Counted from the stretch's first letter, positions 1,657-21,866 are shown. The stretch is 64,000 bases of DNA from an uncultured Actinomycetes bacterium (GCA_963710985.1 CAVQCI010000003.1:1026096-1090095); one strand, 5' to 3'. Notes: generated by a model not told the origin, from the sequence alone. A program made the numbers and translations.

Positions 1657-1897
1657 AGACGCACGAAGGCCCCCCGGCCGAAGCAGGAGGCCAACTGTGC
1701 CACGCGCGACCGGTTCATGACGGGTGCGACCCGTACGGTGCGTGCGTGCTGTGAGTCCTTGGCATACCCGGGATGCTCCCGGCTACCACCCGATCGATCT
1801 AGAGGAATCTTCGGCCCCGCAGCCTTGGACAGACACGGCCCACAAGTCGTGATGTTGGCTCGCCCGCTACCCGATCTCCGGTAAGGCTTTGGGACTC
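1657..1897 (+). repeat. Structured repeat, long copy A (conserved ~95-nt core 1657-1753 plus 3' extension)
   Basis: Starts AGACGCACGAAGG followed by a GC hairpin. Core CGCGCGACCGGTTCATGACGGGTGCGACCCGTACGGTGCGTGC is identical to 21346-21440 and, in reverse, to 26471-26554. The 3' extension is roughly 90 percent identical to 21455-21554 by hand alignment. Confidence 0.8.
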
Positions 1898-3166: not shown

Positions 3167-3562
3167 ATGGACAAGGTCGTGCACTTCGAGATCACGTACG
3201 ACGAACACGCGCGGGCCAAGGAGTTCTACGCGTCCGTGTTCGATTGGGAGCTGAACGACGTGCCGATGGGCGGTGACATGGTCTACACGACGGCCACGAC
3301 CGTGCCCGTGGACGACAAGATGATGCCCACGGAACCGGGGGCGATCAACGGCGGGTTCACCAGTAAGGGGGCCGAGACCCCAGCGCCGGTGATCACGATC
3401 GGCGTGGGCTCGATCGACGACACGATCAAGAAGATCGAGGCGAGCGGTGGGAGTGTCGTGACGCCCCGCACCCCGATCCCCGGCATGGGTGCCTTCGCGT
3501 ACTTCAAGGACAGCGAGGGCAACACGATGGGCCTGTTCGAGACCAATCCGGACGAACGCTAG
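3167..3562 (+). CDS. VOC/glyoxalase family protein
   Basis: 131-aa ORF; GGAAGGGGGA precedes the ATG. VHFEI...FYASVFDWE and C-terminal GAFAYFKDSEGNTMGLFE are typical VOC beta-alpha-beta modules. Confidence 0.85.
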   Translation: MDKVVHFEITYDEHARAKEFYASVFDWELNDVPMGGDMVYTTATTVPVDDKMMPTEPGAINGGFTSKGAETPAPVITIGVGSIDDTIKKIEASGGSVVTPRTPIPGMGAFAYFKDSEGNTMGLFETNPDER

Positions 3563-3949
3563 CCAACGGCGGCCTGCTGCATCCGGCCGGGCGTGCGGAC
3601 GCCGCAGCAGTGGAGTCCGTCGGCGCGCCGCGCATCAGAGCTGCTGAAGACCGGGGAGTCGTATCCGAGGGCGGCTCGAAGTCTCCCTATGCCAAGAGGT
3701 CAAGGACGACACGCATCAGGGTCGCACCGTGTGTCGCCTGCGCTGACTCCGATGTTCGCTCCTCTGTGGGCCCGGTCAGCGCTCCAGGTCCTCTTGGATG
3801 TGGGACGTCCCCAAACGCGGTCAGGAGCGTGCGACGCCTCGGGTGGGACGTGCGCTCGCGGCCCGCGTCGCCGATGTCGGATCGGGACACCACGCCGGTC
3901 ATCTCCTTAACAGGGTCGGTGAGACTGCGCTTCTCCTCGCCGATCCCCC

Positions 3950-4081
3950 ATGGGTGACAAGTTGTACGGGTGGCCGCAGACGTTCGTCGGGGCCAAGCCG
4001 CCTGGGCCCGTGGCCCCAAGGCCTGATGGTGAGTCCTGCGAGAACCAGGCCCTCAGGCCCCTGTGGGGGATGAAACCCTAG
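3950..4081 (+). pseudogene. Remnant (C-terminal tail) of the XRE-like HTH mini-gene family
   Basis: Encodes DKLYGWPQTFV, matching the tails at 4698-4754, 24315-24467, 46198-46226(-) and 46735-46800(-). No HTH part is present upstream. Confidence 0.4.
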
Positions 4082-4121
4082 ATCGAGGCTCACGGGTTGG
4101 GTCGACTGAGGGGGAACGTTC

Positions 4122-4559
4122 ATGGCGACTTCGACGGTTCATGCTACGGGCCACTCGACGCGAACAAGGCTCGCGGTCATCGCCGCTGCCGGGTTCATCG
4201 TGCTTGGTCTCTTCCAGATCGCCCTGGCCTTGGGCGCACCGCTCGGTGAGGCGGCCTATGGGGGGACGCGCACCGACCTGCCGGCCTCGCTGCAGATCAC
4301 GAGCGCCGTTGCCGCGGTCGTCTACGGCCTGGCGACGCTTGTCGTCCTCCGTCGCGTCGGGTACCACGTGCCCCTCATCAGCGGCCGGGTGTCTCGGGTA
4401 GGGACGTGGATACTCGCGGGCCTGATGCTGCTCGGCGCGCTGATGAACTTCGCATCCTCGAGCGGATGGGAACGCTTCGGGTGGGGTCCGTTCGCGCTGG
4501 TGCTCGCGATCCTGTGCTTCCTGATCGCCCGAGGGGACCGAGGGTCGAGTCGAGCCTGA
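4122..4559 (+). CDS. Hypothetical membrane protein (4 predicted TM helices)
   Basis: 145-aa ORF with GAGGGGGA before the ATG and four hydrophobic stretches. It is flanked on both sides by HTH-tail remnants. Confidence 0.6.
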   Translation: MATSTVHATGHSTRTRLAVIAAAGFIVLGLFQIALALGAPLGEAAYGGTRTDLPASLQITSAVAAVVYGLATLVVLRRVGYHVPLISGRVSRVGTWILAGLMLLGALMNFASSSGWERFGWGPFALVLAILCFLIARGDRGSSRA

Positions 4560-4697
4560 GCGGCCGTCGCGTCGGTCCTTGTTCGCTCCTCTCATGCGCT
4601 CGCTCCTTCGGCGGCTGATGCCTGAGGACGCTGGACGGAGGCGGACCGGTGGTTCAGGGTCCAACGTCGCCTTCTGATCGGCCACCGGTCCTACGTG

Positions 4698-4754
4698 GAC
4701 CGGATCTGCAAGCTGTACGGGTGGTCGCAGACGTTCGTCGCGGCGAACCGCTGA
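4698..4754 (+). pseudogene. Remnant (C-terminal tail) of the XRE-like HTH mini-gene family
   Basis: Encodes DRICKLYGWSQTFVAANR followed by a stop. The upstream frame no longer encodes the HTH. Confidence 0.4.
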
Positions 4755-4930
4755 ATTCCCGTTGGAGAAACGAGCTTCGGTCTCCAGAGCATGGACGGAC
4801 ACCTTCCGAAGGACTTCGCCGTAACGCCCGTGCAGCACGTCGACGTATCCTTACGCCAGGCAACCTGACCCTGCGGAGGCGTGCACCTGGTTCTTCTGCG
4901 CTTAGCGGAGCTCGTTCTCTATGCCACCGA

Positions 4931-7456
4931 TCACTCCGGCAGGCGGAGGCGTTTGAGCAGCAGCGCGTTGACGGCCACGAGCAGGCTCGACCCAGACATA
5001 GAGATCGCTGCGATCTCGGGGCGAAGGACGAGCCCGAAAGCGGGCTCGAAGACCCCGGCGGCGATCGGGAGCGCCACGGAGTTGTAGCCGATCGCCCAGC
5101 CGAGGTTCTGTCTCATCTTCCGAACGGTTCCCCTGCCGATGTCCAAAGCGATGGGCACGTCGAGCGGATCCGACCGCATCAAGACAACGTCAGCCGTCTC
5201 GATCGCGACATCGGTTCCGGCCCCGATCGCGATACCGAGATCCGCTCGCGCCAATGCTGGCGCGTCGTTGACGCCATCCCCGACCATAGCCACCCTTCGA
5301 CCTCCCTCCTGCAGGGCGTCTACCTGGTCGGCCTTGTCTCCGGGAAGGACCTCGGCGATGACCGTCTGCACCCCGAGCTCGTGGGCGATCCTCTCCGCGG
5401 TCGCTTGGTTGTCGCCCGTGAGCATCACCACTTCGATGCCGGCGTCCTTGAGCGCGGCGACGGCAGCCACCGACGTGTCCCGAGGGGCGTCGGCGATCCC
5501 GATGATCGCCGAGGCGACACCGTCGATGGCGACGCAGACGACCGTCCGTCCGCTGGAGGCGAGCTCCTCGCGTCGCTGCGCGAGTGGACCGAGTGATACG
5601 GCCTGCTGCTCCATGAGCCTGAGGTTCCCGACGGCCACGCGCCGGCCGTCGACGACGGCAAGCGCACCCTGACCTGGAACGTTCTCGAACGCCTCCGCGC
5701 GAGGGTTGTTCCTGCCGTCCAACTTCTCGGCGGCGAACGAAACGACGGCTTGCGCGAGGGGGTGCTCGGACTCGGTCTCGACGGCGGCGACGAGCGAAGG
5801 ACTTCGATCTTCGACATGCCGTCGACCACGAAGTCGGTAACCTCGGGCTCGCCCTTCGTCAAGGTGCCCGTCTTGTCCATCACGACGACGTCGATGGACG
5901 CAGCCGTCTCGAGCGCGATCGCGTTCTTGAACAAGATCCCGCGTTGGGCGCCCAGGCCCGTTCCGACCATGATCGCGGTGGGTGTCGCGAGCCCGAGGGC
6001 GTCGGGACACGTGATCACGACCACGGTGATCGCGAAGAGCATCGCCGTCGCGAAGTCCTTCCCGGCGAGCATCCACGCCACGAGGGTGAGGGCCCCGCCG
6101 ATCAGCGCGACGAAGACGAGCCAGAACGCAGCCCGGTCGGCCAGACGCTGGCCAGGTGCCTTCGAGTTCTGCGCTTCCTGGACCAGCTTCACGATCTGGG
6201 CGAGCGCCGTATCCGCTCCGACCTTCGTGGCCCGAACTCGGAGGGTGCCGTTCTCGTTGATCGTCGCACCGATCACTTCTGACCCGGGACCCTTCGAGAC
6301 CGGAAGGCTCTCACCCGTTACGACGGATTCGTCGACCTCGCTCTGACCTTCCTCGACGGTCCCGTCGACACCGATCTTGTCCCCGGGTCGCACGAGCATG
6401 AGGTCGCCGACCACCAAGTCTGCTGTGGGGATCTTGACCGAGACCCCGTCGCGGATCACCGTCGCCTTCGGAGGGGCGAGGTCGAGGAGCGTTCTGATCG
6501 CGTCGTTCGCCCCACCGCGGGCCCTCATCTCGAACCAGTGACCGAGGAGGACGAACGCGGCCAGCACCGACGCCGCTTCGTAGAACGTGTCACCTCCTCC
6601 GGTGAGCGTGACGCCCAGCGAATACAGCCAGCCGGCACCGATCGCGACCGCGACGAGGACCATCATGTCGAGCGTGCGGGCGCGAAGGGCGCGGACGGCC
6701 CCGTCGAAGAAGATCCACGACGAGTAGAAGACGACCGGAAGACTGAGCAGCAGCAGCCACACATCGTCTCGAAGGCCGAACGGCGCCGGCGCCGAGAAGT
6801 GAAGGACGTCCCGTCCGATGGGGGACCACAGGAGGATCGGGACGGACAGTATCGCGGCCACCAAGAAGCGGTTGCGCATGTCGCGCACCATCGCCTCCAT
6901 CGACGTGCCCGCGTGGCCGCCGTGGCCCATCATGTCGTGGGAAGAGGGCAGCGTCCTCTCGGCGGGCATCTCGTGGCCGGCGTTGATCCACGGGCATCGC
7001 GTGATCGCCGTGATCCACCGGCATCTCGTGCCCCGGGTGTTCCGTCTCCATCTCCTCATGCGTCTCGTGGCTGGCAGGCTCCGCATGCGTCGCGTGCCCC
7101 GCATGTCCGGGGGCGACGACCGTGGCGACATCCACCGGGTCCGGTTCGGACATGGCGTCGCAGATGTGGTGGGGTACCGATTGGCCGGCACAGTGGTAGC
7201 GGCACTCCTCGACCCACCGACGGAGCTCGGCGATCGACGTCGTGCCGGTGTCGTACGTCACGGTTGCCGTCTGCGACACGGGGTTCGCTTCCACGCGCTC
7301 GACCCCTGGTCGGCGTGCGAGGGCGCGTTCGACAACTACCTTCTCGCTCGCGAAGTTCAGACCCCAGACCTGAAGGACTACCGTCGCGAGCTTGCGGTCC
7401 CCGTTCTGATGCTCGCTCCCCACCAAGCTTGGGCCCACGTGGGCTGCGTGGTCCAT
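4931..7456 (-). pseudogene. P1B-type heavy-metal (copper-type) translocating ATPase, interrupted by two apparent frameshifts
   Basis: Three ORF pieces join into one ATPase. The N-terminus has a degenerate HMA domain, CRYHCAG and a His/Met-rich tract. The core has TGES, DKTGTLT, SEHPLA, GDGVNDAPAL and a TM6 motif that reads CPD. Frame changes lie near 6975-6995 and 5791-5794; restoring one nt at the latter gives the canonical [18 protein letters not shown]. Confidence 0.85.
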
Positions 7457-7479
7457 CGTTCCCTCACCTCACTCGTCCA

Positions 7480-8583
7480 CTATGAGCCCGTCGTTGGCGC
7501 TGAGCCGACGGGGAGCTCCACCTTCACGCCGCGTTCTGCCAGACGAGCGAAGAATCGAGCCGGGTCAACGACTTGCTCGGGCATCCAGGCGCCGGGCTCG
7601 GCGACCTCGCCGTCCAGCAGTGACCGCACGAGAACAGCCGTTCCGGCGGCGGTAGCGTCGGCCTGTGCCCCGCCGACCACCGTCGCATAGCTCGCGTTCC
7701 CGTCGCGCGTCACATCGACGCGCAACGCGAAATGCTCGTGGCGACGCGGAGCGCGATCGCGGCGGCGCTGCACCAGCGCGCGACGAACGCCCTCTCGCCC
7801 TACGACCCGTGTAGCCCGTGTCCGCACCAGGAGCGCTAGCAGCCGGGCCAGGCTCGGCGGGTCGAGCGCCAGCCGCGACAGCACGGTGCGGGCGCCCATC
7901 GTGCGCGGGTACAGCACCTGGTCGGAGAAGGGGAACAGATACGCCTGCCGCGACCCGATCGGCGCGGGGAAGTCGACGCGGCGTGGGTCGCTGAACGCGT
8001 GCCCGGGACGGTCGGCACCATCGACGTGCACGTCGAAGGGCATCGTCAGCTCCTGCAAGAAGTAGTTGAACGACGCTGGGCCTGCCGCGTCGCCCGCGTC
8101 GAGCAGTAACGACGTCTCGATGGTGTCCGACCCGCCGAGCGCGTTCGCGACGCCGCGCACCATCACGTTTGAGATCCCGGGCACGATCCCGGCGCCAAGC
8201 AGGACGCGCGAACCGGACGCTTTGGCCGCACCATCGATCCGTTCGTACGCGGCACCGCGCCCGAGCTCGCTCAGGTGCGGAGTGATGTCGGTGTAGCGCA
8301 ACCCGCGCTCGATCACGGCGTGCATCAGTCCGCGCTCGGGCTGGTCGATAGAGTTGATGGCGAGCGCGACATCATCGAGCGCCGCCCCGATCGACTCGGG
8401 GTCAGTCACGTCGAGGGCGCGGCCGCGAACCCCGTGGCCGATCGCTGCCGCAGTCGCGTCTGCGCGCTCGGCGTCTCGCCCGGAGACGATGAGGCGTCCC
8501 GGATAGTGGGGGGCGAGCTCAGCGGCGATCCGACGGCCGACGACGCCATAGCCGCCTGCGATCAGTATCGCTTGGCTGCTCAT
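7480..8583 (-). CDS. Saccharopine dehydrogenase-like NAD(P)-binding oxidoreductase
   Basis: Start taken at MSSQAILIAGGYGVVGRRIAAELA (Rossmann GxGxxG). The length and C-terminal domain fit the saccharopine dehydrogenase family. Confidence 0.75.
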   Translation of the reverse strand: MSSQAILIAGGYGVVGRRIAAELAPHYPGRLIVSGRDAERADATAAAIGHGVRGRALDVTDPESIGAALDDVALAINSIDQPERGLMHAVIERGLRYTDITPHLSELGRGAAYERIDGAAKASGSRVLLGAGIVPGISNVMVRGVANALGGSDTIETSLLLDAGDAAGPASFNYFLQELTMPFDVHVDGADRPGHAFSDPRRVDFPAPIGSRQAYLFPFSDQVLYPRTMGARTVLSRLALDPPSLARLLALLVRTRATRVVGREGVRRALVQRRRDRAPRRHEHFALRVDVTRDGNASYATVVGGAQADATAAGTAVLVRSLLDGEVAEPGAWMPEQVVDPARFFARLAERGVKVELPVGSAPTTGS

Positions 8584-8894
8584 CGCTATTCCTTTCAGGG
8601 GTGTCTCGCCCCCGAACATGGTGCGGTGAGATGAAGAACCGACGAAACGGTTGTGTACGTTCGACGATTCTCGCTGCCACGGGTAGAAGGTGACGATGGT
8701 CGCTGCTGGCTGACCAGCGTGAGAGGCTGGCCCGACTCAAGCCAGGTGCGCTACCGAGTCGGCACAAGGCTTCATCAGGGCCGCCTCCGAGCTCGACGGG
8801 GACCTCCGCCGCGGAATCCGTGCGGTTGCGGTGGTGGCTGGAAGGATCCGACGACATGATATGGGGCTGGAGCGACTCCTGGGCAGGGTGGGGG

Positions 8895-9356
8895 TCATGC
8901 GTGGGGCGACGTCGCGAAGAGGATCGGGCAGACAAGGAACGCCGCTCGGCACAAAGGCGAGCAGAACTTGTAACTCTCGCCATCCCAACGAGTAGTAAGC
9001 GGACGCTGGTTGGTGATCGGCATCCCACAGATGGGGTCGAATAGACCCAGCGTGCCGGGCCGATCGCCGAAGATGTAGTCCATCTCCTCTCGCCAGCGGT
9101 ACCGCTCGCGATCTCCTTCGACTTCCACATCCGTTATGCCTTGCTCCGCGAATCGCGACAAGACCGCCTCGGCCTCGCCGAGGCTAAGGTGACGATCTCT
9201 CGCGAGGTCCTCGGCAGAAACGGACTTCCTCTCGCCACCGACAAGCGCAAGGTAAGCGGACCGCTCTGCGGCCGTCCCTAGATGCGCTCTCGCGAACTGG
9301 GTCCAGGGGTCATAACGCTCAGTGATCGTTCCTGTGCTCGCTCCACTCGTTCCCAT
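8895..9356 (-). CDS. YHS (TRASH-type) domain protein with helical N-terminal domain
   Basis: C-terminus FDPICGMPI...YKFCSPLCRAAF is a YHS/TRASH metal-binding motif. The gene is divergent from the lgt-ccmF ORF. Confidence 0.7.
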   Translation of the reverse strand: MGTSGASTGTITERYDPWTQFARAHLGTAAERSAYLALVGGERKSVSAEDLARDRHLSLGEAEAVLSRFAEQGITDVEVEGDRERYRWREEMDYIFGDRPGTLGLFDPICGMPITNQRPLTTRWDGESYKFCSPLCRAAFLVCPILFATSPHA

Positions 9357-9553
9357 GCCTGTGAGTCTGGTCGCTCCGTTCGCCGCCTTGATGTGGAACG
9401 CGTGAACGTCATGTGAAGCCCGGCGTGAATCGGGAGAGCCGCCGGGAGGCGGCTAGGAGGGCCGGATCACGCCCCACAGCGGGTGCGGGAGCCGCACACC
9501 GCGTTCACAACCTCCGCACAGAGTGAGCATCGACCGTCCCTAGCTTCGGTCGC

Positions 9554-12409
9554 ATGGTGAGCGCCATCTCATGGCCGGTGGTGACGGAGCTCCACTTCGG
9601 ACCGATCCCGATCCGGCCGCACGGCATCCTGATCGCCGTTGGCTTCATCGCCGGCGGGCTCGTGATGCGCCGTTCGACTAGGCGCGCAGGGATCTCCGAC
9701 GACGATCTGTGGCGCGTCCTCGAGTGGGGGCTCATGGGCGGCGTGATCGGGATGCGCATGGCGTGGGACCTCGGACACATCCGCGACATGCACTCGATCG
9801 TCGATTACGTCGCCGTCTGGAACGGCGGGATGAGTCTGCTCGGCGGACTGATCGGGGCGGTCGTCCTGGGCGGAGCCGTTGCACGCCGCGCAGGGCTGCC
9901 GCCGCTCCCGATGCTCGATATGGCCGCGGCTGGGCTCGCGCTGGGGATCGCGATCGGGCGCCTGAGCGATCTGATCATCGGCGACCATCTCGGGAAGCCG
10001 ACCTCCCTGCCGTGGGGCTTCTCCTATCAAGGCGGGATGCATCCGCTCGCAGGCGTGCCGGCTATGGGCACGGTCGTCCATCCGGTCGCGCTCTACGACC
10101 TGCTGCTCACGACAGTGCTCTTCATCGTCCTTCTGAGGTTCGCGCGTCGGCCGCGCGCGGTGGGCTCCGCGATCGCACTCTTCGTCCTCTGGTACGGGGG
10201 GAGTCGGATCCTCACAGACTTCCTGCGGACCGATCCCCGCCGGATCCTCGGTCTCACCGGGAGCCAACTCACCGCGATCGTCCTGGTCGCGGTCGTAGTG
10301 GTCGCGCTGCTCGTGCGTGCCCGCGGCTCACGTTCCACCCCTCGTCTCGCACCGCTCCCTCGGCGGGGCGCCGACCGAGAGCGCCGCCGTCGGGGAGGAG
10401 GCCTCTGTATGAACACCATCGGCAGGTACGCGCTGCTCCTCGCGCTCGCGTGCACGACGAGCAGCGCCGTGCTCGGCTACATCGGCGGCCGACGGCGACG
10501 GCCCTCGGCGACCCGCGCCGCCGAAGGGGGGCTGCGCGCCTCTGCGCTCCTGCTATCTGTCGCAGGGTTCGCCCTCTTCTACGCGCTCGTCACACGCGAC
10601 TTCTCGCTCGAGTACGTCGCCTCGTACACGAGCCGGGACCTTTCGCTCTTCTACACGCTCGGCGCGTTCTGGGCGGGACAGGCCGGATCGCTCCTCCTGT
10701 GGGCCTGGGTGCTCGCGATCTATGCGGCGGTGGTCGTCCGGCAGAACCGGACGCGCAACCGGGACCTGATGCCCTGGGTCGTGACGGTGATCGCGACCGT
10801 GCTGGCCTTCTTCACGTTCCTCGTCGTGTTCCTTTCGAACCCGTTCAACACGGTGGCTGCCGTGCCGCCCGACGGGCAGGGGTTGAATCCGTTGTTGCAG
10901 AACTACGGGCAGTGGATCCACCCGGTCACGCTCTACATGGGATACGTCGGGTTCGCGGTGCCGTTCGCGTTCGCGGTGGCGGCGCTCGCGACGGGCAATG
11001 TCGGCGACACCTGGATCCGCACCGTGCGCAAGTGGTCCCTGTGGGCGTGGCTCCTGCTCACGGTCGGGATCATGTTCGGAGCCCGCTGGGCATACGTCGA
11101 GCTCGGCTGGGGTGGCTTCTGGGGCTGGGACCCGGTCGAGAACGCGAGCCTGCTGCCGTGGCTCACCGGAACCGCGTACCTGCACTCGGTGATGATCCAA
11201 GAGAAACGCGGGATGTTGAAGGTCTGGAACGTCTTCCTGATCACCGCGACGTTCGCACTCTCGATCTTCGGCACGTTCCTGACGCGGTCCGGCGTCGTGT
11301 CGTCGGTCCACGCCTTCTCCGAGTCGAGCATCGGCCCGTTCCTGATCCTGGCGGTGGCCACTGTGGTCGTCGGGATGGGAACGCTGATCATCTGGCGGCT
11401 CCCGCTCCTGCAGGGCGAGCACCGGATCGACGCCGTCGTCTCGCGCGAAACGTCGTTCCTCGTGAACAACCTCCTGCTGCTCGGGATGGCGTTCACGGTG
11501 TTCTGGGGCACCATGTTCCCGCTCGTCGCGGAGGCCGTCCGCGGCGTGAAGGTGTCCGTCGGCGGTCCCTTCTTCGAGGCGTTGATGACGCCTCTCGCCG
11601 TTGGCCTGCTCGTGCTCGCCGGCGTCTGTCCGCTGCTCGCATGGCGGAAGGCGACGGGGAGGAACCTGCGTCGTAACTTCACAGGCCCAGCGATCGCCGG
11701 CGCGGTGGGGTGGGCTGTGCTCCTCGCGTGGTCCCGGGCGCAGCACCTGGGAGCCGACGCGATCGTCGCCCTGTCGATCTTCGTCATGGCGACGATCGTG
11801 CAGGAGTTCTGGCGCGGGACGCGAGCGCGTCGGACGACGCGGGGCGAGGGCTGGGGGCGCTCCTTCATCAACCTGTTCTCGCGCAACCCGCGCCGCTACG
11901 GCGGGTACGTGATCCACCTCGGGATCGTGATCCTGTTGACCGGCGTCGCGATCAACGCCTCGTACAAGGTGGAGTCGCGCCTCGCCGGCGTGGCGGTCGG
12001 GCAGTCCTCGACGGTGGGTGGCTACACGGTGACCCTGCGATCGCTCAGGACCGAGACGACGGCGACGCGACAGACGATCGTCGGGACCTTCAGTCTCCGC
12101 GACCCGAGCGGGCGCGACCTGGGGACCGTCGACGCGGAGAAGTCGTTCTATCCCAACCAGGATCAGCCGGCGACGGAGGTCGGGATCCGCTCCACGCCGT
12201 GGGCCGATCTCTACATCATCCTGTCGGACCCCGATCCGGCGCGTCAGATCGCGGCCGTCTCGTACCTCGTGAACCCCGGCATGTATTGGATCTGGCTGGG
12301 GGCGCTGATCGTCGTGATCGGCGGCGTGATCGTCGGGTGGCCCAGCACGCGACGCCCGGAGACGAAGGAGGTGCCCGATGCGGCGGAGTTCGCGCGGGCC
12401 GAGGCGTAG
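9554..12409 (+). CDS. ccmF: Single 951-aa ORF: Lgt (prolipoprotein diacylglyceryl transferase) domain fused in frame to CcmF-type heme lyase
   Basis: Residues 1-270 carry Lgt motifs (HGILIAVGF, GGMSLLGGLIG, IGRLSDLIIGDHLGKPTSLPWGF, HPVALYD). From the ATG at 10409 (preceded by GGGGAGGAGG) the protein is CcmF, with WGGFWGWDPVENASLLPWL. There is no in-frame stop between the two parts. Confidence 0.8.
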   Translation: MVSAISWPVVTELHFGPIPIRPHGILIAVGFIAGGLVMRRSTRRAGISDDDLWRVLEWGLMGGVIGMRMAWDLGHIRDMHSIVDYVAVWNGGMSLLGGLIGAVVLGGAVARRAGLPPLPMLDMAAAGLALGIAIGRLSDLIIGDHLGKPTSLPWGFSYQGGMHPLAGVPAMGTVVHPVALYDLLLTTVLFIVLLRFARRPRAVGSAIALFVLWYGGSRILTDFLRTDPRRILGLTGSQLTAIVLVAVVVVALLVRARGSRSTPRLAPLPRRGADRERRRRGGGLCMNTIGRYALLLALACTTSSAVLGYIGGRRRRPSATRAAEGGLRASALLLSVAGFALFYALVTRDFSLEYVASYTSRDLSLFYTLGAFWAGQAGSLLLWAWVLAIYAAVVVRQNRTRNRDLMPWVVTVIATVLAFFTFLVVFLSNPFNTVAAVPPDGQGLNPLLQNYGQWIHPVTLYMGYVGFAVPFAFAVAALATGNVGDTWIRTVRKWSLWAWLLLTVGIMFGARWAYVELGWGGFWGWDPVENASLLPWLTGTAYLHSVMIQEKRGMLKVWNVFLITATFALSIFGTFLTRSGVVSSVHAFSESSIGPFLILAVATVVVGMGTLIIWRLPLLQGEHRIDAVVSRETSFLVNNLLLLGMAFTVFWGTMFPLVAEAVRGVKVSVGGPFFEALMTPLAVGLLVLAGVCPLLAWRKATGRNLRRNFTGPAIAGAVGWAVLLAWSRAQHLGADAIVALSIFVMATIVQEFWRGTRARRTTRGEGWGRSFINLFSRNPRRYGGYVIHLGIVILLTGVAINASYKVESRLAGVAVGQSSTVGGYTVTLRSLRTETTATRQTIVGTFSLRDPSGRDLGTVDAEKSFYPNQDQPATEVGIRSTPWADLYIILSDPDPARQIAAVSYLVNPGMYWIWLGALIVVIGGVIVGWPSTRRPETKEVPDAAEFARAEA

Positions 12410-12977
12410 GTATAGCCGGGTGGCTTCGGGGATCGCCGCCGCGGCGCTGGTCGGCGCCGTCGCCGCGATCGTCGTGTTCGGTGCGTTCCCGCACGTAGCG
12501 ATGGCGGGGACGATGTACGACGTCGCCCAGGTGTCGACCGCGCCGAGCATGGCTCCCCACGACGCCCAGGAGATCCCGGTCAGCGACGGGCTCAAGCGTG
12601 TGCTGCAGGGGCTCTTGTGCCAGTGCGGCTGCAACCTGGACGCCTACGGTTGCCAGCAGACGATGACCTGCAAGGTCTCGAGCGCGATGTGGCGTCAGGC
12701 CGCGCGGATGGTCGATCGCGACGGGAAGACGCCGACGGAGGCGCTGCAGTTGTTCGCCGCCGACTACGGCGAGTACGTCCTGGCCTCGCCAACGAAGGAG
12801 GGCTTCAACCTGACCGTGTGGGTTCTGCCGTTCGTCGCACTCCTGGTCGGAGGTGTGGTACTCGCCTTCGCTTTGCGCGGGTGGCGTCGCACGCCGCGAC
12901 CGATCGAGGCCGAAGCCCCAACCCTGGATCCCGCCCTCCGGGACCGGATCGAGCGTGAGCTGTTCGAGGAGGACTAG
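12378..12977 (+). CDS. ccmH: CcmH/NrfF-like cytochrome c biogenesis protein
   Basis: GAAGGAGG lies 6 nt before the ATG. The Cys motif LLCQCGC is followed by MWRQAARMVDRDGKTPTEALQLFAADYGEYVL and a C-terminal TM helix, matching CcmH architecture. Confidence 0.75.
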   Translation: MRRSSRGPRRRYSRVASGIAAAALVGAVAAIVVFGAFPHVAMAGTMYDVAQVSTAPSMAPHDAQEIPVSDGLKRVLQGLLCQCGCNLDAYGCQQTMTCKVSSAMWRQAARMVDRDGKTPTEALQLFAADYGEYVLASPTKEGFNLTVWVLPFVALLVGGVVLAFALRGWRRTPRPIEAEAPTLDPALRDRIERELFEED

Positions 12978-13442
12978 ATGCTGCTCGTAACGATCGTCTC
13001 GTTCGCGCTGTTCATAGCCGCGGTGACGATGATCGCAGCGCCGCTGTTGCGCCCCGACCCTGCAGATGTCCCCGATGAAGGCGACGACTTGTCTCCACGA
13101 CGGCAGCGCCTGCTCACGGACATCCGTGAGCTCGACCATGATCTGGCGACCGGCAAGCTCGACACCATCGATCACGAACGATTCCGGGCGACCGCCCTCG
13201 CCGAGCTCGCGAGCACGATCGAGGCGATGGATCAAGCCGGTCCGCCGATAGATGACGCTCGCGAGCCCGACGGCGAGGCGTTCGATGTTGATGCCTGGCT
13301 CGAATCCAAGATCGCCGAACGCAGGCAGACGCTGCAAGCCTCGCCCTGTTGCCCGGAGTGTGAGGCTCCGCGCGACCCGGGCGACGCGTTCTGCCGCCGG
13401 TGCGGCGCTCCCGCGTTCGCACGCGCGACGAAGGTGACGTAG
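12978..13442 (+). CDS. CcmI-like N-terminal module with C-terminal zinc ribbon
   Basis: The ATG directly follows the ccmH stop. An N-terminal TM helix is followed by RRQRLLTDIRELDHDLATGKLD (like the CcmI N-domain). The C-terminus is CPECEAPRDPGDAFCRRCG. Confidence 0.55.
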   Translation: MLLVTIVSFALFIAAVTMIAAPLLRPDPADVPDEGDDLSPRRQRLLTDIRELDHDLATGKLDTIDHERFRATALAELASTIEAMDQAGPPIDDAREPDGEAFDVDAWLESKIAERRQTLQASPCCPECEAPRDPGDAFCRRCGAPAFARATKVT

Positions 13443-13444
13443 CC

Positions 13445-14053
13445 GTGAGAACCGTCGATCAGCACCAAACAGCGCAGGATACGGACGAGCCGGGCGGAGA
13501 GACCGGCCGCGTCACGAAGCGCAGTGGCCGCTTCACCTCGATCGTCGTATCGATCGTGATCGGCGGTCTCATGCTTGGCGTCTTAGCGGCCGCAGCCAAG
13601 GTCAAAGGAGGTCCTCAGCTCGCCGCGAACCCCTCGGGCCCGGCCCCGGACTTCACCCGGCCGCTCCTGGAGGGCGAGGGTTCGATCACCCTGTCCGATC
13701 TTCGAGGACACCCCGTCCTGCTCAACTTCTGGGCGTCGTGGTGCGGGCCGTGCAGGGACGAGGCCCCCGTCCTCGCAGCGGGGTGGACGAAGTGGCGCGA
13801 CAGCGGCGTCATCTTCCTCGGAGTCGACACGCGAGACAGCAGGAGCGCTGCGATCGAGTTCGAGCGGCGCTACGGGGTGGAGTACCAGAGCGTCGTCGAC
13901 GAGAACGAGGAGGTCAACTACGCATACGGCGTGACCGGGTTCCCGGAGTCGTTCTTCATCGACGCTCGAGGTCAGATCGTCGCCAAGTACGTCGGGCCGA
14001 TGGATACGCCGACGCTCGATGCGTACGTCTCGATGCTGGTCAAGGGATCGTAA
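13445..14053 (+). CDS. TlpA/ResA/CcmG-like membrane-anchored thiol:disulfide oxidoreductase
   Basis: Contains FWASWCGPCRDEAP (a thioredoxin-type CxxC active site) after a TM anchor. GTG at 13445 was chosen because it follows the upstream stop; an ATG at 13400 is also possible. Confidence 0.85.
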   Translation: MRTVDQHQTAQDTDEPGGETGRVTKRSGRFTSIVVSIVIGGLMLGVLAAAAKVKGGPQLAANPSGPAPDFTRPLLEGEGSITLSDLRGHPVLLNFWASWCGPCRDEAPVLAAGWTKWRDSGVIFLGVDTRDSRSAAIEFERRYGVEYQSVVDENEEVNYAYGVTGFPESFFIDARGQIVAKYVGPMDTPTLDAYVSMLVKGS

Positions 14054-14065
14054 GGAGGCGTGACC

Positions 14066-14746
14066 GTGCAACGAGCCAACGTCGCGATCTTCCTCACGGC
14101 CGTCGCGTTGATCGGTCTCGCGCCGCTCATCCTTGCCGTGGCATCCGTCGCTCGTCGCCGCGCAGATGGCGGGGGCGCTGGACGACGTGGCCGGCGCCGG
14201 CTCGCCGTCGCCGGGATGGCGAGCCTACTGCTCGTTGGAGTCACGGTCCTGGCAGCGTGGGCACTCGCGGGCAGGACGCAACCGGGGGCCGGATCTGCGT
14301 CGGGCATGCGGGGGATGGGCGCCGGTTCCGGCGGGATGTCGACCCACGTGCGCGTACCTCGCACGCTCGCGGGGCTCAAGATCACGGCTCTCACGCGTGG
14401 TGATGATGCGATCGCCGAAGTCACCACACTCCACGGCTCGGCGTTCCCGCTCGTCGATGCCGCTGTCGCCCGGTACGGAGACCGGGTCGACGTGTGGGTG
14501 TCGTCTGCGCCCGACGTCGCGACCGCCCGGCGAGAGGTCGACGAGATGCGCATCCGGATCGCCGACGGGGGAACGCCGTTCGCCACACCGACCCTCGTCC
14601 GCACCGCAGGACGCGTGTTCACCACCTCGGGGATGGGGGAGCGGCACTTCTTCTTCTCGTCCGGTCGCGACGTCTGGTGGATCAGCGCTCCTGGGCCGTT
14701 CGCGGAGGCGGCGCTCCATGACCTCATGGGAGGAGCAGCGGCATGA
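14066..14746 (+). CDS. Hypothetical membrane protein (2 TM helices plus soluble domain)
   Basis: AGGAGG lies 7 nt before the GTG at 14066 (alternative GTG at 14060). The gene is translationally coupled to its neighbours. I recognised no family. Confidence 0.55.
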   Translation: MQRANVAIFLTAVALIGLAPLILAVASVARRRADGGGAGRRGRRRLAVAGMASLLLVGVTVLAAWALAGRTQPGAGSASGMRGMGAGSGGMSTHVRVPRTLAGLKITALTRGDDAIAEVTTLHGSAFPLVDAAVARYGDRVDVWVSSAPDVATARREVDEMRIRIADGGTPFATPTLVRTAGRVFTTSGMGERHFFFSSGRDVWWISAPGPFAEAALHDLMGGAAA

Positions 14747-15090
14747 TGACCATCCATCTCCTCGGCGGTGTGGGGCTTGCCGTGCTCGCGATCGCGACGG
14801 CGGCCGCGTTCCTCGTACGTCGAGCCGTTCCGCGCGCGACCCTCGCTGCCTGGGCGCTCGCCCTGCTCCTCGTGCAGGTGGCGACGGGCATGCTTCTGCT
14901 CACCGCGACGAACGAGGGTCCAGGCCCCGTCCACGTCGCGGTGCCGCTGGCCGCTCTCGCGGTCGCAGGCGCGGCGCGGTTCTTCTCGTCCATGCGAGGG
15001 CGGGGTGGCACAGCGGTGCTCAGCGCGGCATACGCCTTCGTGGCGTTCGCGGCGCTCGTCGCCCTCGCAACGGGTCTGGCAGGCGGGTGA
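14743..15090 (+). CDS. Hypothetical integral membrane protein
   Basis: ATGA overlap with the upstream gene; 115 aa with four hydrophobic helices. Confidence 0.55.
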   Translation: MMTIHLLGGVGLAVLAIATAAAFLVRRAVPRATLAAWALALLLVQVATGMLLLTATNEGPGPVHVAVPLAALAVAGAARFFSSMRGRGGTAVLSAAYAFVAFAALVALATGLAGG

Positions 15091-15159: not shown

Positions 15160-15861
15160 TTGGGCGCGGCGACGATCCTCGTGGTCGACGACGAGCAGAA
15201 GATCCGCGACACCGTCCGGCAGTACCTCGAGCACGACGGGTACTCGGTGCTGGTCGCGGACAGTGGTCAGCGCGCGCTCGAGATCTTCGCTCGCTCGGAG
15301 CCGGACCTGATCGTCTTGGATCTGATGCTGCCCGATCTGTCGGGGCAGGAGGTGGCCCGCGCTATCCGCGAGTTGGCGCCGACGCCCATCATCATGCTGA
15401 CCGCGAAGTCGACCGAGGACGACCGCGTACAGGGCCTGAAGCTCGGTGCTGACGACTACCTCGTGAAGCCGTTCTCGCCGCGCGAGCTGATGGCACGCAT
15501 CGAAGCGGTTCTGCGACGAACGTCGAACCACGGCGATCGGCCGGGGGCGATGTCGTTCGAAGGTGGCAAGCTCTCGATCGATCGCGAGGCGCGCGAGGTG
15601 ACCGTGGAGGGGGAGTTCGTGGAGCTCACCCGGAGCGAGTTCGACCTCCTCCTCGCCCTCGCGTCGCGGCCCGGTCGCGTGTTCTCTCGGTACGAGCTCG
15701 TCACGCGCGTCCAGGGTTACGACTACGAAGGCTATGAGCGCACGATCGATGCGCACGTGAAGAACGTCCGACGGAAGCTGCGCGATGACCCGAAGCACCC
15801 TCGCTACCTGGTCACCGTGACCGGCGTCGGCTACAAGCTCGGCGTGAAAGCCGATGGGTAG
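15160..15861 (+). CDS. OmpR-family response regulator
   Basis: Receiver motifs ILVVDDE, DLIVLDLMLPD and LTAK, followed by a winged-helix output domain (TVTGVGYKL). Confidence 0.9.
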   Translation: MGAATILVVDDEQKIRDTVRQYLEHDGYSVLVADSGQRALEIFARSEPDLIVLDLMLPDLSGQEVARAIRELAPTPIIMLTAKSTEDDRVQGLKLGADDYLVKPFSPRELMARIEAVLRRTSNHGDRPGAMSFEGGKLSIDREAREVTVEGEFVELTRSEFDLLLALASRPGRVFSRYELVTRVQGYDYEGYERTIDAHVKNVRRKLRDDPKHPRYLVTVTGVGYKLGVKADG

Positions 15862-17248
15862 GTCCTACCGGCTCCGGCTGGTCGCGGCCTTCGCCGGCGT
15901 CGGGATAGGGGCGGCGGCCCTGACCGCTCTGCTCGTGAACGCTGCCTTCAGTCCGAGGTTCGACCTGTACGTCCAGCAGCAGCGGCAGGTCCACGAGCAG
16001 CAGATGCAGGCGGCGCTGGCTGATTCCTACGCGAAGATGGGCGGATGGAACACCGCTGACCTCAACGGACTCGCCCCGTTGGCGTTGATGGACGGTGGGA
16101 CGCTCCGGCTCCTCGACGCGCAAGGGCGACAGGTGTGGGACGCGTCCGCCGGTCCAGGCTCGCGACTCGCTCAGATGCAGCACACGATGAGTGGGGGATC
16201 GACGCTCGGGCCTGAGGACCGGGTGCCGGTCACGGTCGGCCACAACACAGTCGGTACCGCCGTGATCAGGTTCCCGGTGTCCGGGCTGCTTCCGCAGGAC
16301 CAAGCGTTCCGCGCGTCGGTGAACCGGCTGCTCGTCCTCGGTGGCATCGCCGCCGCCGTGTTCGCCGTGATCGCCGGAGCCGTCCTCGCTCGTCGGGCCG
16401 TGCGTCCCGCCCTGGAACTGACCGAGGTCGCGAGGTCCGTCGCCGCCGGTGACCGGTCTCTTCGTGTGGTCCCCGACGCGACCGAGGAGTTCGCGGCGAT
16501 GGCGCGCGCGTTCAACCAGATGGCGGACACGGTCGCCGAGGAAGACGAGCTTCGCCGAACGTTCGCGGCCGACGTCGCCCATGAACTCCGTACCCCGCTG
16601 GCGGTCTTGCTCAGCCAGGTCGAAGGGATGCAGGACGGCGTGATCGGCGCCGACCCCGTTGCGCTTTCTTCGCTGCACGAGGAGACGCTCCGCATCGGGC
16701 GGCTGGTCGCCGACCTCGAGACCCTCGCGTCCGCCGACGCCGCCGGCTTCACCCTCGCACCCGTGCAAACCGACCTCGACGTCCTCCTCGGGGACGTCGC
16801 CGCCGAGTTCGCCGGCCTCGCGGATGCGCGCAACGTCGCGATCACCGTCGATACGGAGCCCCTTAGCCTCGTCCTCGACCCGAGTCGCATCAAGCAGGTG
16901 GTCGCCAACCTCGTCTCGAACGCGGTGAAGTTCACACCGGAGGGCGGCGCCGTCTCGCTATGGCTTCGCCGCGAGGGGGACGAGGCGTGCGTCGCTGTTA
17001 CCGACACGGGTCCGGGCATCCCCGAGGATGAGCTGCCCCATGTCTTCGAGCGGTTCTTCCGTGGACGCGATGTGCGCGCAGGTGGTTCCGGGATCGGTCT
17101 GAGCGTCGCGCGTGAGTTGGTAGTGGCGCACCACGGCTCGCTCAGCGTCACGAGCCGCGCCGGCCAGGGCGCTCGATTCGAGATGAGGCTGCCGGTGAGT
17201 ACGCCCGTCGCGGCGACCACGGCGCAGACGTCCGACCGCTCGAGCTGA
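15854..17248 (+). CDS. Sensor histidine kinase (TM, HAMP, HisKA, HATPase_c)
   Basis: H-box FAADVAHELRTPLAV, N-box NLVSNAVKFTP and G-boxes DTGPGI and GSGIGLSVA. Overlaps the response regulator stop. Confidence 0.9.
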   Translation: MGRSYRLRLVAAFAGVGIGAAALTALLVNAAFSPRFDLYVQQQRQVHEQQMQAALADSYAKMGGWNTADLNGLAPLALMDGGTLRLLDAQGRQVWDASAGPGSRLAQMQHTMSGGSTLGPEDRVPVTVGHNTVGTAVIRFPVSGLLPQDQAFRASVNRLLVLGGIAAAVFAVIAGAVLARRAVRPALELTEVARSVAAGDRSLRVVPDATEEFAAMARAFNQMADTVAEEDELRRTFAADVAHELRTPLAVLLSQVEGMQDGVIGADPVALSSLHEETLRIGRLVADLETLASADAAGFTLAPVQTDLDVLLGDVAAEFAGLADARNVAITVDTEPLSLVLDPSRIKQVVANLVSNAVKFTPEGGAVSLWLRREGDEACVAVTDTGPGIPEDELPHVFERFFRGRDVRAGGSGIGLSVARELVVAHHGSLSVTSRAGQGARFEMRLPVSTPVAATTAQTSDRSS

Positions 17249-17342
17249 CGGTTCCATCGCCGCGAAGGTCGCGTCGTTCGCGCACAGGCCCTTCACGGCG
17301 CGTTCACACGCTTGTCCGAAGTTGCATGGCGGAAGGTACGCC

Positions 17343-17699
17343 ATGAAGACCCGGACGCTGGTGATCGCAGGAACGCTCGCGGCGACGGTCCTCGTCTTGC
17401 TCGTCGTGCTCGGCTGGCCGAGGCCGGCGACCGAGACGCAACCACCTGCGGGATCGATCTCTGCACCCGAAGCCCAGTTGATCTGGTATGCGATGCAGTG
17501 GCACGACTCCGCAGTGAGCTCTGGCGACCGCGGAGGTGCGGCGACGCCGTGTCGTCTCCACCGGCTCGGGCTCAACGTGACGACCACCCTCCACCGAACC
17601 ATCCCTTCTCTCTCTGAGCTGGGCCCGGCGCGGCTGAGTGGCCACACCCGGTTCCAGACAGGGTGGGAGGCAGTGCCGAGCGAAAGGGCCGAGAGATGA
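17343..17699 (+). CDS. Small membrane-anchored hypothetical protein
   Basis: GGAAGG lies 8 nt before the ATG. N-terminal anchor is MKTRTLVIAGTLAATVLVLLVVL. The stop overlaps the next start (ATGA at 17696-17699). Confidence 0.45.
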   Translation: MKTRTLVIAGTLAATVLVLLVVLGWPRPATETQPPAGSISAPEAQLIWYAMQWHDSAVSSGDRGGAATPCRLHRLGLNVTTTLHRTIPSLSELGPARLSGHTRFQTGWEAVPSERAER

Positions 17700-18355
17700 C
17701 ATCGCGAACGGCATCGCACGCGACCGACCATCGCGCGAACCACAAGACCGCCGCCATCCGCAAGGCCGAGCGTCGCCGCGCGGCGGAGCGTCGAGCGGCG
17801 CGCAAGCGTGCGCTGCAGATCACGGGTGCGATCGTCGTCGTCGCCGCGCTCGGGTACCTCGCGACGCGGAGCTCGTCGGGGGAGAAGGCTCCGCCGGTCT
17901 CGCTGGCAGGTATCCGAGCGGTGTCGAACACCGAGTTCCCGGCGAGCGACGGCAAGTCGGTGACCCTGTCGCAGTTCGCGGGAAGCCCCCTCGTCCTCTA
18001 CTTCTACGAAGGGCAGTCCTGCGGCGCGTGTCAGACGCAATTGGCCGACATCCAGAAGGAGTTCCCGCAACTCCAGGCGACTGGTGCGCACGTGCTGGGC
18101 GTCACGACGGACCCCGTTGACGTCTCGGCCTCGGTCGCGTCGCAGCTCGGGCTCTCGTATCCGATCGTCGAGGACGTCGATCACCAACTCGGTTCGGCGA
18201 TGGGAACGTTCGAGGCGAGTGGCCACATGGGCCCGGCAGACCAGCACTCCGTCGTCGTGCTGGGCGCCGACGGATCCGTCGCGTGGCGCCAACTCGCGGG
18301 GACGACGATGTACGTGGCCCCGGACGCGATCTTGAGCGCCGTGAAGGGGGCATAG
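17696..18355 (+). CDS. Membrane-anchored AhpC/TSA-type redoxin
   Basis: A TM anchor is followed by a thioredoxin fold with LVLYFYEGQSCGACQTQL and VLGVTTDP. Confidence 0.75.
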   Translation: MTSRTASHATDHRANHKTAAIRKAERRRAAERRAARKRALQITGAIVVVAALGYLATRSSSGEKAPPVSLAGIRAVSNTEFPASDGKSVTLSQFAGSPLVLYFYEGQSCGACQTQLADIQKEFPQLQATGAHVLGVTTDPVDVSASVASQLGLSYPIVEDVDHQLGSAMGTFEASGHMGPADQHSVVVLGADGSVAWRQLAGTTMYVAPDAILSAVKGA

Positions 18356-18613
18356 ATGACCTCCTCACTCCGCTATCTGACGTCGCCGGACTGCCACCTG
18401 TGTGAGCGCGGGAGGGACATCGCCGAGAAGCTCGCCGACGAGGCTGGGATCGAGCTCGTCGAACTCACATGGACCGAGCCGTGGGCACGCGAGCGGATCG
18501 AGCGAGATGCCGTGGCCTTCCCCCCGGCGCTCTACCTCGAAGATAGGCTCCTCGGGTACGGCCGCCTCTCAGAGCGCCGCCTCCGCAAACTCGTGATGGC
18601 GGTGCCCGCATGA
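18356..18613 (+). CDS. Glutaredoxin-like small thioredoxin-fold protein (DUF836-like)
   Basis: 85 aa with CHLC near the N-terminus. The ATG directly follows the upstream TAG. Confidence 0.65.
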   Translation: MTSSLRYLTSPDCHLCERGRDIAEKLADEAGIELVELTWTEPWARERIERDAVAFPPALYLEDRLLGYGRLSERRLRKLVMAVPA

Positions 18614-19686
18614 ACGGGCTCGTCTACTCTGCGTCCCTCATCGCGGCGTTCCTCGGTGGCGTCCTCGCGTTGTTCGCGCCGTGCTGCGTGGTCACGCTCT
18701 TGCCGAACTTCGTTGCGACCGCGGTGCGCCGCGGCGTGCGTGCGTTGCCAGCCACGACGCTGCTCTTCTCCACGGGCTTGGCCCTCGTCCTGCTCCCGAT
18801 CGTGCTGGGCGTCGGGGCTCTCGGCCACACGATCGGGCGTTACCACGCCGCGGTCTTCACGACGATCGGCATCTTCCTGATCGCCCTCGGCACCTACATC
18901 CTGACCGGGAAGCGGTGGTCGTTGCCGCTGCCAATGATGTCGAAGCCGAGCGGCAACGGGGCCACCTCGACGTTCTTCCTCGGGACCGCTTCGGGAGTGG
19001 CCAGCTCCTGCTGTGCGCCGGTCGTCGCCGGGGTGGTCGCGATGTCTGCGCTGAGCGGGTCATGGATCGGGGCGCTCGGGCTCGGGCTCGCGTACATCTT
19101 CGGCATGGTCTTCCCGCTGCTGCTGTTCGCGATCGCGGCGGTTCGGCATGGGCAACGGTCGAACCGGCCGCTTCGGAAGGTCACGATGTTCGGGCGGGAG
19201 CTCCTCTGGACCGACGCTGTGTCGGGCTCGATGTTCGTTCTGTTCGGCGCGATCACGTTCTTCCTCGGCATCAGCGGTGAGGGAAGCGTGACGCCCGGCC
19301 CACTCGCGGTCTGGGATCGCGTCGTGACCCGCCGGTTCGCCGACCTCGCTGCCGCGCTCGGTAAGACGCCCCTCGTGCTGCAGGCCGGGTTCCTGGTGCT
19401 GCTCGCCGTCCTCGTCGCGGTCCCTCTCTGGCGCACGATGCGCGCCGACGATGGAGGTGGAACCGCGGGAGGCCGGGGTGCTCGTGGCACACGTGTGCGC
19501 ACTACGACGAACCGGGAACGCGATCCGGTGTGCGGGATGGTCGTGCTCGTCCGGCCCGACAGCTTGTCGGCAGACTGGGACGCGAAGACCTACCACTTCT
19601 GTGCGGCGGCGTGCCGCGAACGGTTCGTCGAGAGGCCCGAGGAGTTCGTGAGGCCAGCGACCGCGTCCAGTGCCTCGTCTCGTTGA
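18610..19686 (+). CDS. CcdA/DsbD-like transmembrane thiol-transfer protein fused to a C-terminal YHS domain
   Basis: Six hydrophobic helices carry FAPCCVV and SSCCAPV. The C-terminus DPVCGMVV...YHFCAAACRERF is a YHS/TRASH motif. ATGA overlap with the upstream gene. Confidence 0.8.
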   Translation: MNGLVYSASLIAAFLGGVLALFAPCCVVTLLPNFVATAVRRGVRALPATTLLFSTGLALVLLPIVLGVGALGHTIGRYHAAVFTTIGIFLIALGTYILTGKRWSLPLPMMSKPSGNGATSTFFLGTASGVASSCCAPVVAGVVAMSALSGSWIGALGLGLAYIFGMVFPLLLFAIAAVRHGQRSNRPLRKVTMFGRELLWTDAVSGSMFVLFGAITFFLGISGEGSVTPGPLAVWDRVVTRRFADLAAALGKTPLVLQAGFLVLLAVLVAVPLWRTMRADDGGGTAGGRGARGTRVRTTTNRERDPVCGMVVLVRPDSLSADWDAKTYHFCAAACRERFVERPEEFVRPATASSASSR

Positions 19687-19779
19687 GGGGCACTTTCCGC
19701 AGCTTCATCGCGACATGTCACGAGCTTCACGTGGCCTTCACACGCTGCGAGTAGCCTGGGGGTCGAAAGGAGATCACAC

Positions 19780-21860: not shown

Positions 21861-21866
21861 CGGCCC

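Follow-up and report, generated by a model that had tools for sequence, protein, structure and literature searches.

A putative accessory CcmF–CcmH haem lyase operon on a genomic island of an uncultured Actinomycetes bacterium

What purpose is served by a CcmF-type haem lyase gene that is followed by a CcmH-like gene and has no ccmABCDE beside it? The question is raised by positions 9554–15090 of a 64,000-nt stretch of DNA (the window) from an uncultured Actinomycetes bacterium (GCA_963710985.1, CAVQCI010000003.1:1026096-1090095), whose genome (G000) consists of eight contigs and is 82% complete. A reading of this DNA made from its letters alone (the sequence-only reading) had described an orphan haem lyase module with atypical motifs and two unknown membrane partners. 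We put the probability at roughly 0.5 that the locus is an accessory, laterally spread operon for the late stage of System I cytochrome c maturation, namely a backup CcmFH lyase that is inducible and is supported by thiol reduction, with copper or thiol stress as the probable inducer.

The ORF (open reading frame) listing and the domain scans show a tightly coupled plus-strand operon of seven genes, encoding in order Lgt, CcmF, a CcmH-like protein, a zinc-ribbon protein (ZnR), a TlpA/ResA-like redoxin, and two proteins designated here as Y and Z (Table 1). The CcmF-, CcmH- and TlpA-type genes named in the sequence-only reading are real by these scans, which also agree with it that ccmABCDE is missing from the window. 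Likewise, the window has no credible ORF with a CXXCH motif, and none with CXXCK or CX3-4CH; its only haem-motif matches lie in frames with a third-position G+C content of 0.58–0.71, compared with 0.78–0.89 for the operon genes. The thioredoxin-fold product has a WCGPC motif, a membrane anchor, and Redoxin and AhpC-TSA domains above their cut-offs, and its scores for the ResA and DsbE subfamilies are below theirs.

CcmF contains the Pfam domains Cytochrom_C_asm (1.4e-39, 136.4 bits against a cut-off of 29.9) and CcmF_C (7.2e-58, 196.8 bits against 28.7), and it aligns over the full length of NCBIfam model TIGR00353 with 429 bits against a trusted cut-off of 569, marking it as a divergent lineage. 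Its alignment with Thermus CcmF (6ZMQ, 1.2e-105) spans the whole protein, and in that alignment the WWD motif is intact (WGGFWGWDPVEN is present) and all four histidines are conserved, at IHPV, YLHS, SVHAF and VIHLG. Going by E. coli CcmF, we take two of these to be the periplasmic histidines and two to be the transmembrane ligands of haem b.

The CcmH-like protein (LLCQCGCNLDAYGCQQTMTC; PF03918, 50.3 bits against a cut-off of 25) has a periplasmic domain followed by one transmembrane helix. It lacks the CXXC pair of the LRCxxC type and has LLCQCGC-x6-C-x6-C, in which C81, C83, C85, C92 and C98 are invariant. The sequence-only reading had noted this motif as atypical and it is indeed present, but it is not peculiar to the cluster: C-Q-C-G-C-x6-C-x6-C is invariant in all seven CcmHs aligned, including one from a canonical operon (L022), and the pattern C-x-C-x-C...C...C is found in 110 of the 120 CcmH homologues listed. 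Hence, it is the mark of a large unstudied CcmH subfamily rather than an oddity of this locus. The source labels of the listed homologues of this type include Actinomycetota, KSB1, Chloroflexi/Dehalococcoidia and Acidobacteria. Searches of the PDB with the CcmH sequence and with a profile found none of the solved proteobacterial CcmHs, and in sequence terms the subfamily is far from them. The five cysteines in place of CXXC, together with the lack of a cytochrome gene nearby, could be taken to mean that the CcmF/CcmH scaffold has a non-cytochrome use, for example as a haem-dependent reductase for metals or thiols, as the sequence-only reading had suggested. However, the same five-cysteine motif is common to the CcmHs of canonical ccm operons (L022, L063 and L064), CcmF keeps every haem-handling residue, and CcmE is present in all five of the related CcmH-bearing genomes tested for it. 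Nothing points to such a use, and we regard it as barely credible.

The 951-codon ORF that was originally assigned to CcmF as a whole is CcmF over residues 286–951, but residues 1–285 are a complete Lgt (PF01790, 1.6e-43, 149 bits against a cut-off of 24.9). This part aligns with residues 18–280 of E. coli Lgt (5AZB), including the GR-L motif (R143), scores slightly below the cut-off for TIGR00544 (105 against 118.9), and is 73% identical to the Lgt of related locus L021 and 34–36% identical to the products of the other two lgt genes in the genome. CcmF has its own start, the ATG at 10409, with its own ribosome-binding site (GGAGGAGG) just upstream, and this site is kept in four related loci. 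All 120 of the CcmF homologues listed have CcmF domains only, most being approximately 660–680 aa long, and in both relatives with a translated junction the frame of lgt is not continuous with that of ccmF; in L021, the end of lgt overlaps ccmF in ATGA. As the window retains this ATGA, and the ending GEEASV followed by a stop codon is readable in the +1 frame, the stop-less junction is best explained by a one-base assembly indel or a very recent frameshift. The 989-aa ORF of L023 was considered as a second Lgt-CcmF fusion and rejected, the upstream part being out-of-frame read-through. A second, independent lgt-ccm neighbourhood was seen in another family of the phylum (L065, contig C11 of G376, 1228–9959), where Y-ccmE-ccmE-ccmF-ZnR-ccmABC, with its duplicated ccmE, has an Lgt homologue 1.7 kb upstream.

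The description of the module as an orphan holds inside the window only. Elsewhere, the genome contains ccmE-ccmA-ccmB-ccmC-ccmF followed by a ZnR paralogue on contig C1, and then Rrf2, hemA, a NapC/NirT cytochrome, a Rieske protein and cytochrome b. It also includes a fusion of ResB-like and CcsA-like domains (CcsBA) in one 865-aa open frame on contig C6 (C6:293058-295550; L001, L006), so that both System I and System II are represented, and approximately ten ordinary multihaem CXXCH proteins, most of them encoded near the C1 operon. Three genes diverge from the C1 ccmE gene (L008 13319–15504, +): tlpA, one that is Y-like, and one for a radical-SAM/SPASM protein of TIGR04053 (475 bits, cut-off 395) related to AhbD/NirJ, AhbD being a haem-b synthase. 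This set is conserved in the equivalent loci L047–L050 near hemA, forming a haem/cytochrome supercluster. The C1 CcmE is of the Cys type (…FAKCPSKF), with Cys in place of His, a variant of Archaea and Desulfovibrio that functions without CcmH (PMC9084895). The island CcmF depends on this CcmE encoded elsewhere.

The CcmH in the window is the only one found in the genome. PF03918 is present in 47 of the 223 genomes of the family and in one of 37 other genomes of the same genus, and the resident operons of two of these relatives (G076 and G018; L047 and L048) run from ccmEABCF straight into ZnR without CcmH. The sequence-only reading would have been overturned by a complete ccmABCDE operon and ordinary cytochromes elsewhere, with the cluster conserved as the standard ccmFGH part in relatives; ccmEABC and the cytochromes are there, but given the rarity of CcmH in the genus and a resident operon with its own CcmF, the cluster is not that standard part. 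A low Pfam score was tried as a marker for a module type of CcmH and failed, since G148 and G259 carry such CcmHs in what appear to be single canonical systems, on the same contig as CcmE and CcmF in G148 and beside the only CcmF in G259.

The resident ccmF gene (G000:C1:72253-74275; L008 8254–10276, −) is split into ORFs of 373 and 283 aa by three 1-nt indels (a deletion and two insertions), all within 52 nt, relative to the intact orthologues in G076 and G018. If this gene were a pseudogene, the island would supply the only working System I lyase of the organism. However, G160 has an intact canonical CcmF as well as the module, and in the same assembly the reading frame of an island ATPase gene is broken (see below) and lgt lacks its stop codon, making long-read indel errors an equally likely cause of the breaks in ccmF. 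Functional replacement therefore seems quite improbable.

A maximum-likelihood tree groups the module CcmFs in a clade with 100/100 support, whose sister group is canonical CcmFs with a CcmH behind them (L022), and sets this clade apart from the canonical CcmFs of this genus, which form a CcmH-less clade of their own. G160 has one CcmF in each of the module and canonical clades, and at least two CcmF loci were found in G160 and G118, as in G000. A distinct paralogue of this kind, with a CcmH and physically apart from ccmEABC, is also the arrangement of NrfEFG (PMC12285233), raising the question of whether the island encodes a dedicated lyase of the NrfEFG or SirEFG kind, a CcmF/CcmH pair for one special cytochrome or non-standard haem motif, as the sequence-only reading had proposed. 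In E. coli, NrfEFG is a System I lyase dedicated to the CXXCK haem of NrfA, and it shares with the module a paralogous CcmF (NrfE), a CcmH-like thiol protein (NrfF) and a supply of CcmE from elsewhere. Unlike NrfEFG, the module has neither an adjacent substrate gene nor a TPR-type recognition subunit (NrfG/CcmI type), and it also comes with Lgt, TlpA, Y, Z, ZnR and regulators of its own. Its equivalog scores are 424 bits against 927 for NrfE and 18.6 against 159 for NrfF. No cytochrome gene was detected in the window or in the examined parts of the related loci, where not every flanking ORF was scanned, and among the ten ORFs of the genome with two or more CXXCH motifs there is no CXXCK, no CX11-17CH and a single CX4CH. 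A special-motif substrate could be missing from a genome that is 82% complete, but on balance we consider a dedicated lyase unlikely.

The same seven genes in the same order were found in four further metagenomic or metagenome-assembled loci (L021, L023/L051 from G160, L029 and L030), and without lgt in two more (L032 and L033), all from uncultured Actinomycetota. Three of these (L023/L051, L029 and L030) also include a response regulator (63–73% identity), a CxxC redoxin of the AhpC/TSA fold, CcdA and a glutaredoxin-like protein. A homologue of the island YHS-domain protein is found in L023/L051 and L029, and an island-type histidine kinase in L023/L051. In these three loci the companion genes diverge from lgt instead of following Z as they do in the island, and the survival of the set through this rearrangement argues that it is a functional unit. 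Another locus, L053, has lgt, CcdA, the redoxin, TlpA, Y and the two-component set but no ccmF. In the same locus, a cupredoxin gene with a lipobox (LLSACGN; 7468–8031, −) is convergent with the island-type lgt, and genes for small Met-rich proteins and a SHOCT protein (598–981, −) lie beside the same two-component system.

Direct repeats of GTGAA are found in the region upstream of lgt (Table 1), and the pattern occurs four times in the window, compared with 0.14 expected, all four being inside the island. The repeat recurs upstream of lgt in L023/L051, L029, L030 and L053, and L021 has a copy there with a single mismatch; a second site is near the YHS gene. The layout of the repeat is as expected of an operator for an OmpR-family regulator; it is thus a candidate operator, and the operon is probably regulated rather than housekeeping. 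Copies of GTGAA-N6-GTGAA were also observed at 17292–17307, between the kinase and redoxin genes, and at 19726–19741 (−), within a SHOCT gene.

The island is approximately 19.7 kb long, is bracketed by direct repeats of approximately 210 bp, and is slightly poorer in G+C than the genome (0.66–0.69 as against 0.70–0.71). The separate CcmF clade, the patchy distribution, the lower G+C content and the direct repeats together point to lateral acquisition of a paralogous module. A plainer version of this history is a recent transfer of ccmFH-tlpA that yielded a redundant paralogue with no distinct role, with the regulators and metal genes as unrelated passengers, and the component families are indeed those of the canonical operons of relatives (L022, L063 and L064). 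However, the regulator, CcdA, redoxin and glutaredoxin accompany the module in at least three other loci with a different gene order, the operator-like repeat is conserved, and only the module form of Y has a Met-rich linker. We therefore find redundancy without a role very improbable.

Y (228 aa) and Z (115 aa) are the two membrane proteins of the sequence-only reading (14060/14066–14746 and 14743–15090). Their genes overlap in ATGA and are directly followed by those of a response regulator and a histidine kinase, and neither protein matches a Pfam or NCBIfam model. They are not specific to the module, however, as their relatives adjoin canonical ccm operons. Y-family genes lie beside ccm genes in the C1 operon and in five other genomes of the same family, and G296 alone gave a Y-family hit without a ccm neighbour. 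Arrangements in further genomes are tlpA-Y-Z with ZnR-ccmH-ccmF-CBAE (G345 and G331), ccmABC-Y (G353) and the order lgt, Y, ccmE, ccmE, ccmF, ZnR, ccmABC in G376, and Z-like genes accompany Y-family genes in L022, L052, L063 and L064. Pfam scans of Y-family members gave no match. Full-length Y is rare, with ten hits in a word-indexed search of 5.8 billion clusters, and its C-terminal domain belongs to a family of 864 representatives at E values up to 1e-3. This domain is modelled by AlphaFold as a confident alpha/beta fold (predicted local distance difference test score, pLDDT, >90 for residues 100–225), but Foldseek comparison of it with the PDB gave only weak matches, the best (E of 5e-3, TM-scores of 0.36–0.48) being to TiME- and PknH-type sensor domains, from which no function can be assigned. 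What sets the island Y apart from canonical Y-like proteins is a second membrane helix and an invariant Met-rich GMxGM linker, and full-length proteins with the linker (E ≤1e-80) were found in four of the 294 genomes of the class, representing three genera (G000, G160, G153 and G118). Z has two invariant histidines, H5 in helix 1 and H64 in helix 3; its predicted model has a pLDDT of 59, and sequence and profile searches of the PDB with Z found nothing.

ZnR (154 aa) had been taken for a CcmI-like protein with a zinc ribbon. The ribbon stands (CPEC...CRRC at the end; Zn_Ribbon_1, 22.1 bits, just under the cut-off of 25), but no TPR or CcmI model was matched in the Pfam and NCBIfam scans and, lacking a TPR domain, ZnR cannot be counted as a CcmI. 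Its architecture, an N-terminal membrane helix followed by a helical segment, is compatible with the N-terminus of CcmI, which it presumably also resembles in sequence, and it may occupy a CcmI-like place. ZnR paralogues directly follow ccmF or ccmH in every canonical operon examined. In a JGI metagenome protein of 339 aa (P0398), a CcmH of the CQCGC type is naturally fused to a membrane helix, a helical segment and double zinc ribbons, a fusion that links ZnR to CcmH. With Y, Z and ZnR flanking canonical ccm operons in at least four families of Actinomycetota, we regard all three as candidate new accessory proteins of the actinobacterial System I.

An accessory, inducible lyase would work as follows. 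The resident C1 ccmEABC would load haem onto the Cys-type CcmE, and the island CcmF would receive haem from holo-CcmE and, with the island CcmH that the resident system lacks, attach it to CXXCH apocytochromes. Reductant would pass outward through CcdA to TlpA and the second redoxin, and from these to CcmH and the apocytochrome thiols, with Y, Z and ZnR acting as lineage-specific Ccm accessory proteins. The operon would be switched on by the island OmpR-type regulator through the GTGAA repeats, most likely in response to copper or another thiophilic metal or to thiol-oxidative stress.

A link to metals is suggested by the island P1B ATPase (best match to the copper family), the two YHS domains, the GMxGM linker of Y, and the cupredoxin lipoprotein and Met-rich proteins of L053, and copper or thiol stress is our preferred signal, as the gene content would predict. 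Copper is reported to impair both lipoprotein acylation (PMC6538781) and c-type cytochrome biogenesis (bioRxiv 10.64898/2026.10.17.759849). Haem attachment and lipidation by Lgt both form thioether bonds on exported cysteines, and a block of both by copper would provide a rationale for the coupling of lgt to ccmF. A bolder version, which we offer tentatively and as doubtful, is that Y, Z and ZnR are unrecognised components of System I in Actinomycetota and that the island is a metal-inducible unit for the rescue of thioether formation, combining Lgt and CcmFH with a thiol-reducing supply and a Y that buffers Cu(I) through its methionines.

Several points weigh against the reading of the island as a stress-induced lyase. 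The signal is deduced from neighbouring genes only, and the adjacency of the ATPase and the module is read from this island alone. The metal of the ATPase is uncertain, given an unusual CPD in place of CPC in transmembrane helix 6, a score short of the copper-family cut-off and a broken reading frame. Its HMA domain has no CxxC pair, the gene can be read only by joining three frames, and the two frame breaks reflect either a pseudogene or assembly indels. Both the kinase and the regulator score below every NCBIfam cut-off, leaving the kinase unclassified, and on the available DNA the regulatory set is missing beside the module in three loci (L021, L032 and L033). Nothing found in this genome tied Lgt to a particular lipoprotein, and a crude scan of 28 CXXCH ORFs for cytochromes that are lipoproteins revealed no credible lipobox signal peptide. 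Finally, most genomes of the family mature their cytochromes without CcmH, so that its contribution here is unexplained.

With its Cys-type CcmE (CPSKF) and its lack of CcmH, the resident C1 operon matches the streamlined System I of the Cys type from Archaea and Desulfovibrio (CcmABCEF, a CXXXY CcmE and no CcmH; PMC9084895). The island differs by adding CcmH and a second CcmF, and L022 joins a Cys-type CcmE and CcmH in one operon. The path from CcdA to a membrane-anchored WCGPC thioredoxin of the ResA/TlpA kind and on to apocytochrome thiols is that of System II in Gram-positive bacteria, but here it would serve a System I lyase, the System II of this genome being the separate CcsBA fusion on C6. 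The envelope thiol systems for copper tolerance (Scs of Salmonella and Caulobacter; dsbD/dipZ, cutE=lnt and cutF=nlpE of E. coli) resemble the island in domain content, in having a DsbD/CcdA-type importer, TlpA-like thioredoxins, metal-binding domains, a link to lipoprotein maturation and stress regulation; they differ in lacking Lgt and a CcmF/CcmH haem lyase.

To our knowledge, nearly all work on System I has concerned Proteobacteria, plant mitochondria and a single archaeon. The actinobacterial lineage considered here has a Cys-type CcmE system that is usually without CcmH, and a mobile CcmFH unit that appears to be separately regulated. The three conserved ccm-adjacent families without a described function (Y, Z and ZnR) are the most novel result. 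If the stress reading is true, the island would represent a natural protective response for cytochrome c maturation, a recently identified conserved target of copper toxicity, and would provide a genetic handle on the contribution of CcmH where CcmH is optional.

Table 1. Features of the operon and of the surrounding island, with positions counted from the first nucleotide of the window
Feature	Position	Strand	Remarks
Lgt paralogue (prolipoprotein diacylglyceryl transferase)	9554..10408	+	In frame with ccmF, without stop codon
CcmF/NrfE-family haem lyase, 666 aa	10409..12409	+	Pfam domains, structure alignment, tree
CcmH-like protein, CQCGC-x6-C-x6-C subfamily, only CcmH of the genome	12378..12977	+	PF03918
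ZnR: N-terminal transmembrane helix, helical region, C-terminal zinc ribbon	12978..13442	+	
TlpA/ResA/DsbE-like thioredoxin, membrane-anchored, WCGPC	13400..14053	+	
Y: two transmembrane helices, Met-rich GMxGM linker, 130-aa alpha/beta domain; no described family	14060..14746	+	
Z: four-helix membrane protein, invariant H5 and H64; no described family	14743..15090	+	
Left direct-repeat copy	1686..1897		1686–1756 vs 21373–21443, 99%; 1788–1897 vs 21445–21554, 89%
P1B-type heavy-metal ATPase, best match copper type	4931..7456	-	TIGR01511, 2.4e-98 and 9.6e-74 on two pieces
YHS/TRASH-domain protein, candidate metal-sensing regulator, divergent from lgt	8895..9356	-	YHS 6.1e-07, 29.8 bits, just under cut-off of 30.3
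Three GTGAA half-sites, 11–12 bp spacing, candidate OmpR-type operator	9402..9429	+	125 bp upstream of lgt
OmpR-family response regulator	15160..15861	+	73% identical orthologue beside module in L023/L051
Sensor histidine kinase, BaeS/heavy-metal-sensor architecture	15854..17248	+	All matches below cut-offs; 56–58% orthologues in L023/L051 and L053
AhpC/TSA-fold redoxin, membrane-anchored, SCGAC	17663..18355	+	Conserved in L023, L029, L030, L052 and L053
Glutaredoxin-like protein (CHLC)	18356..18613	+	
CcdA/DsbD-type thiol-electron transporter fused to C-terminal YHS domain	18610..19686	+	Both domain matches below Pfam cut-offs
Right direct-repeat copy	21373..21554		Matches left copy

The CcdA-type protein of the island scores 22.2 bits for DsbD_TM against a cut-off of 27.1, and contains FAPCC and SSCCAP. 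When the island flanks were compared with 37 genomes of the same genus in search of the empty site, short multicopy repeats dominated the matches, and no clear result emerged. Approximately 23 kb upstream of the window, G000:C3:1002992-1004203 consists of 96–99% copies of window positions 21560–21935 and 23408–24300, and these copies of the DNA just to the right of the island represent a segmental duplication in a repeat-rich variable region.

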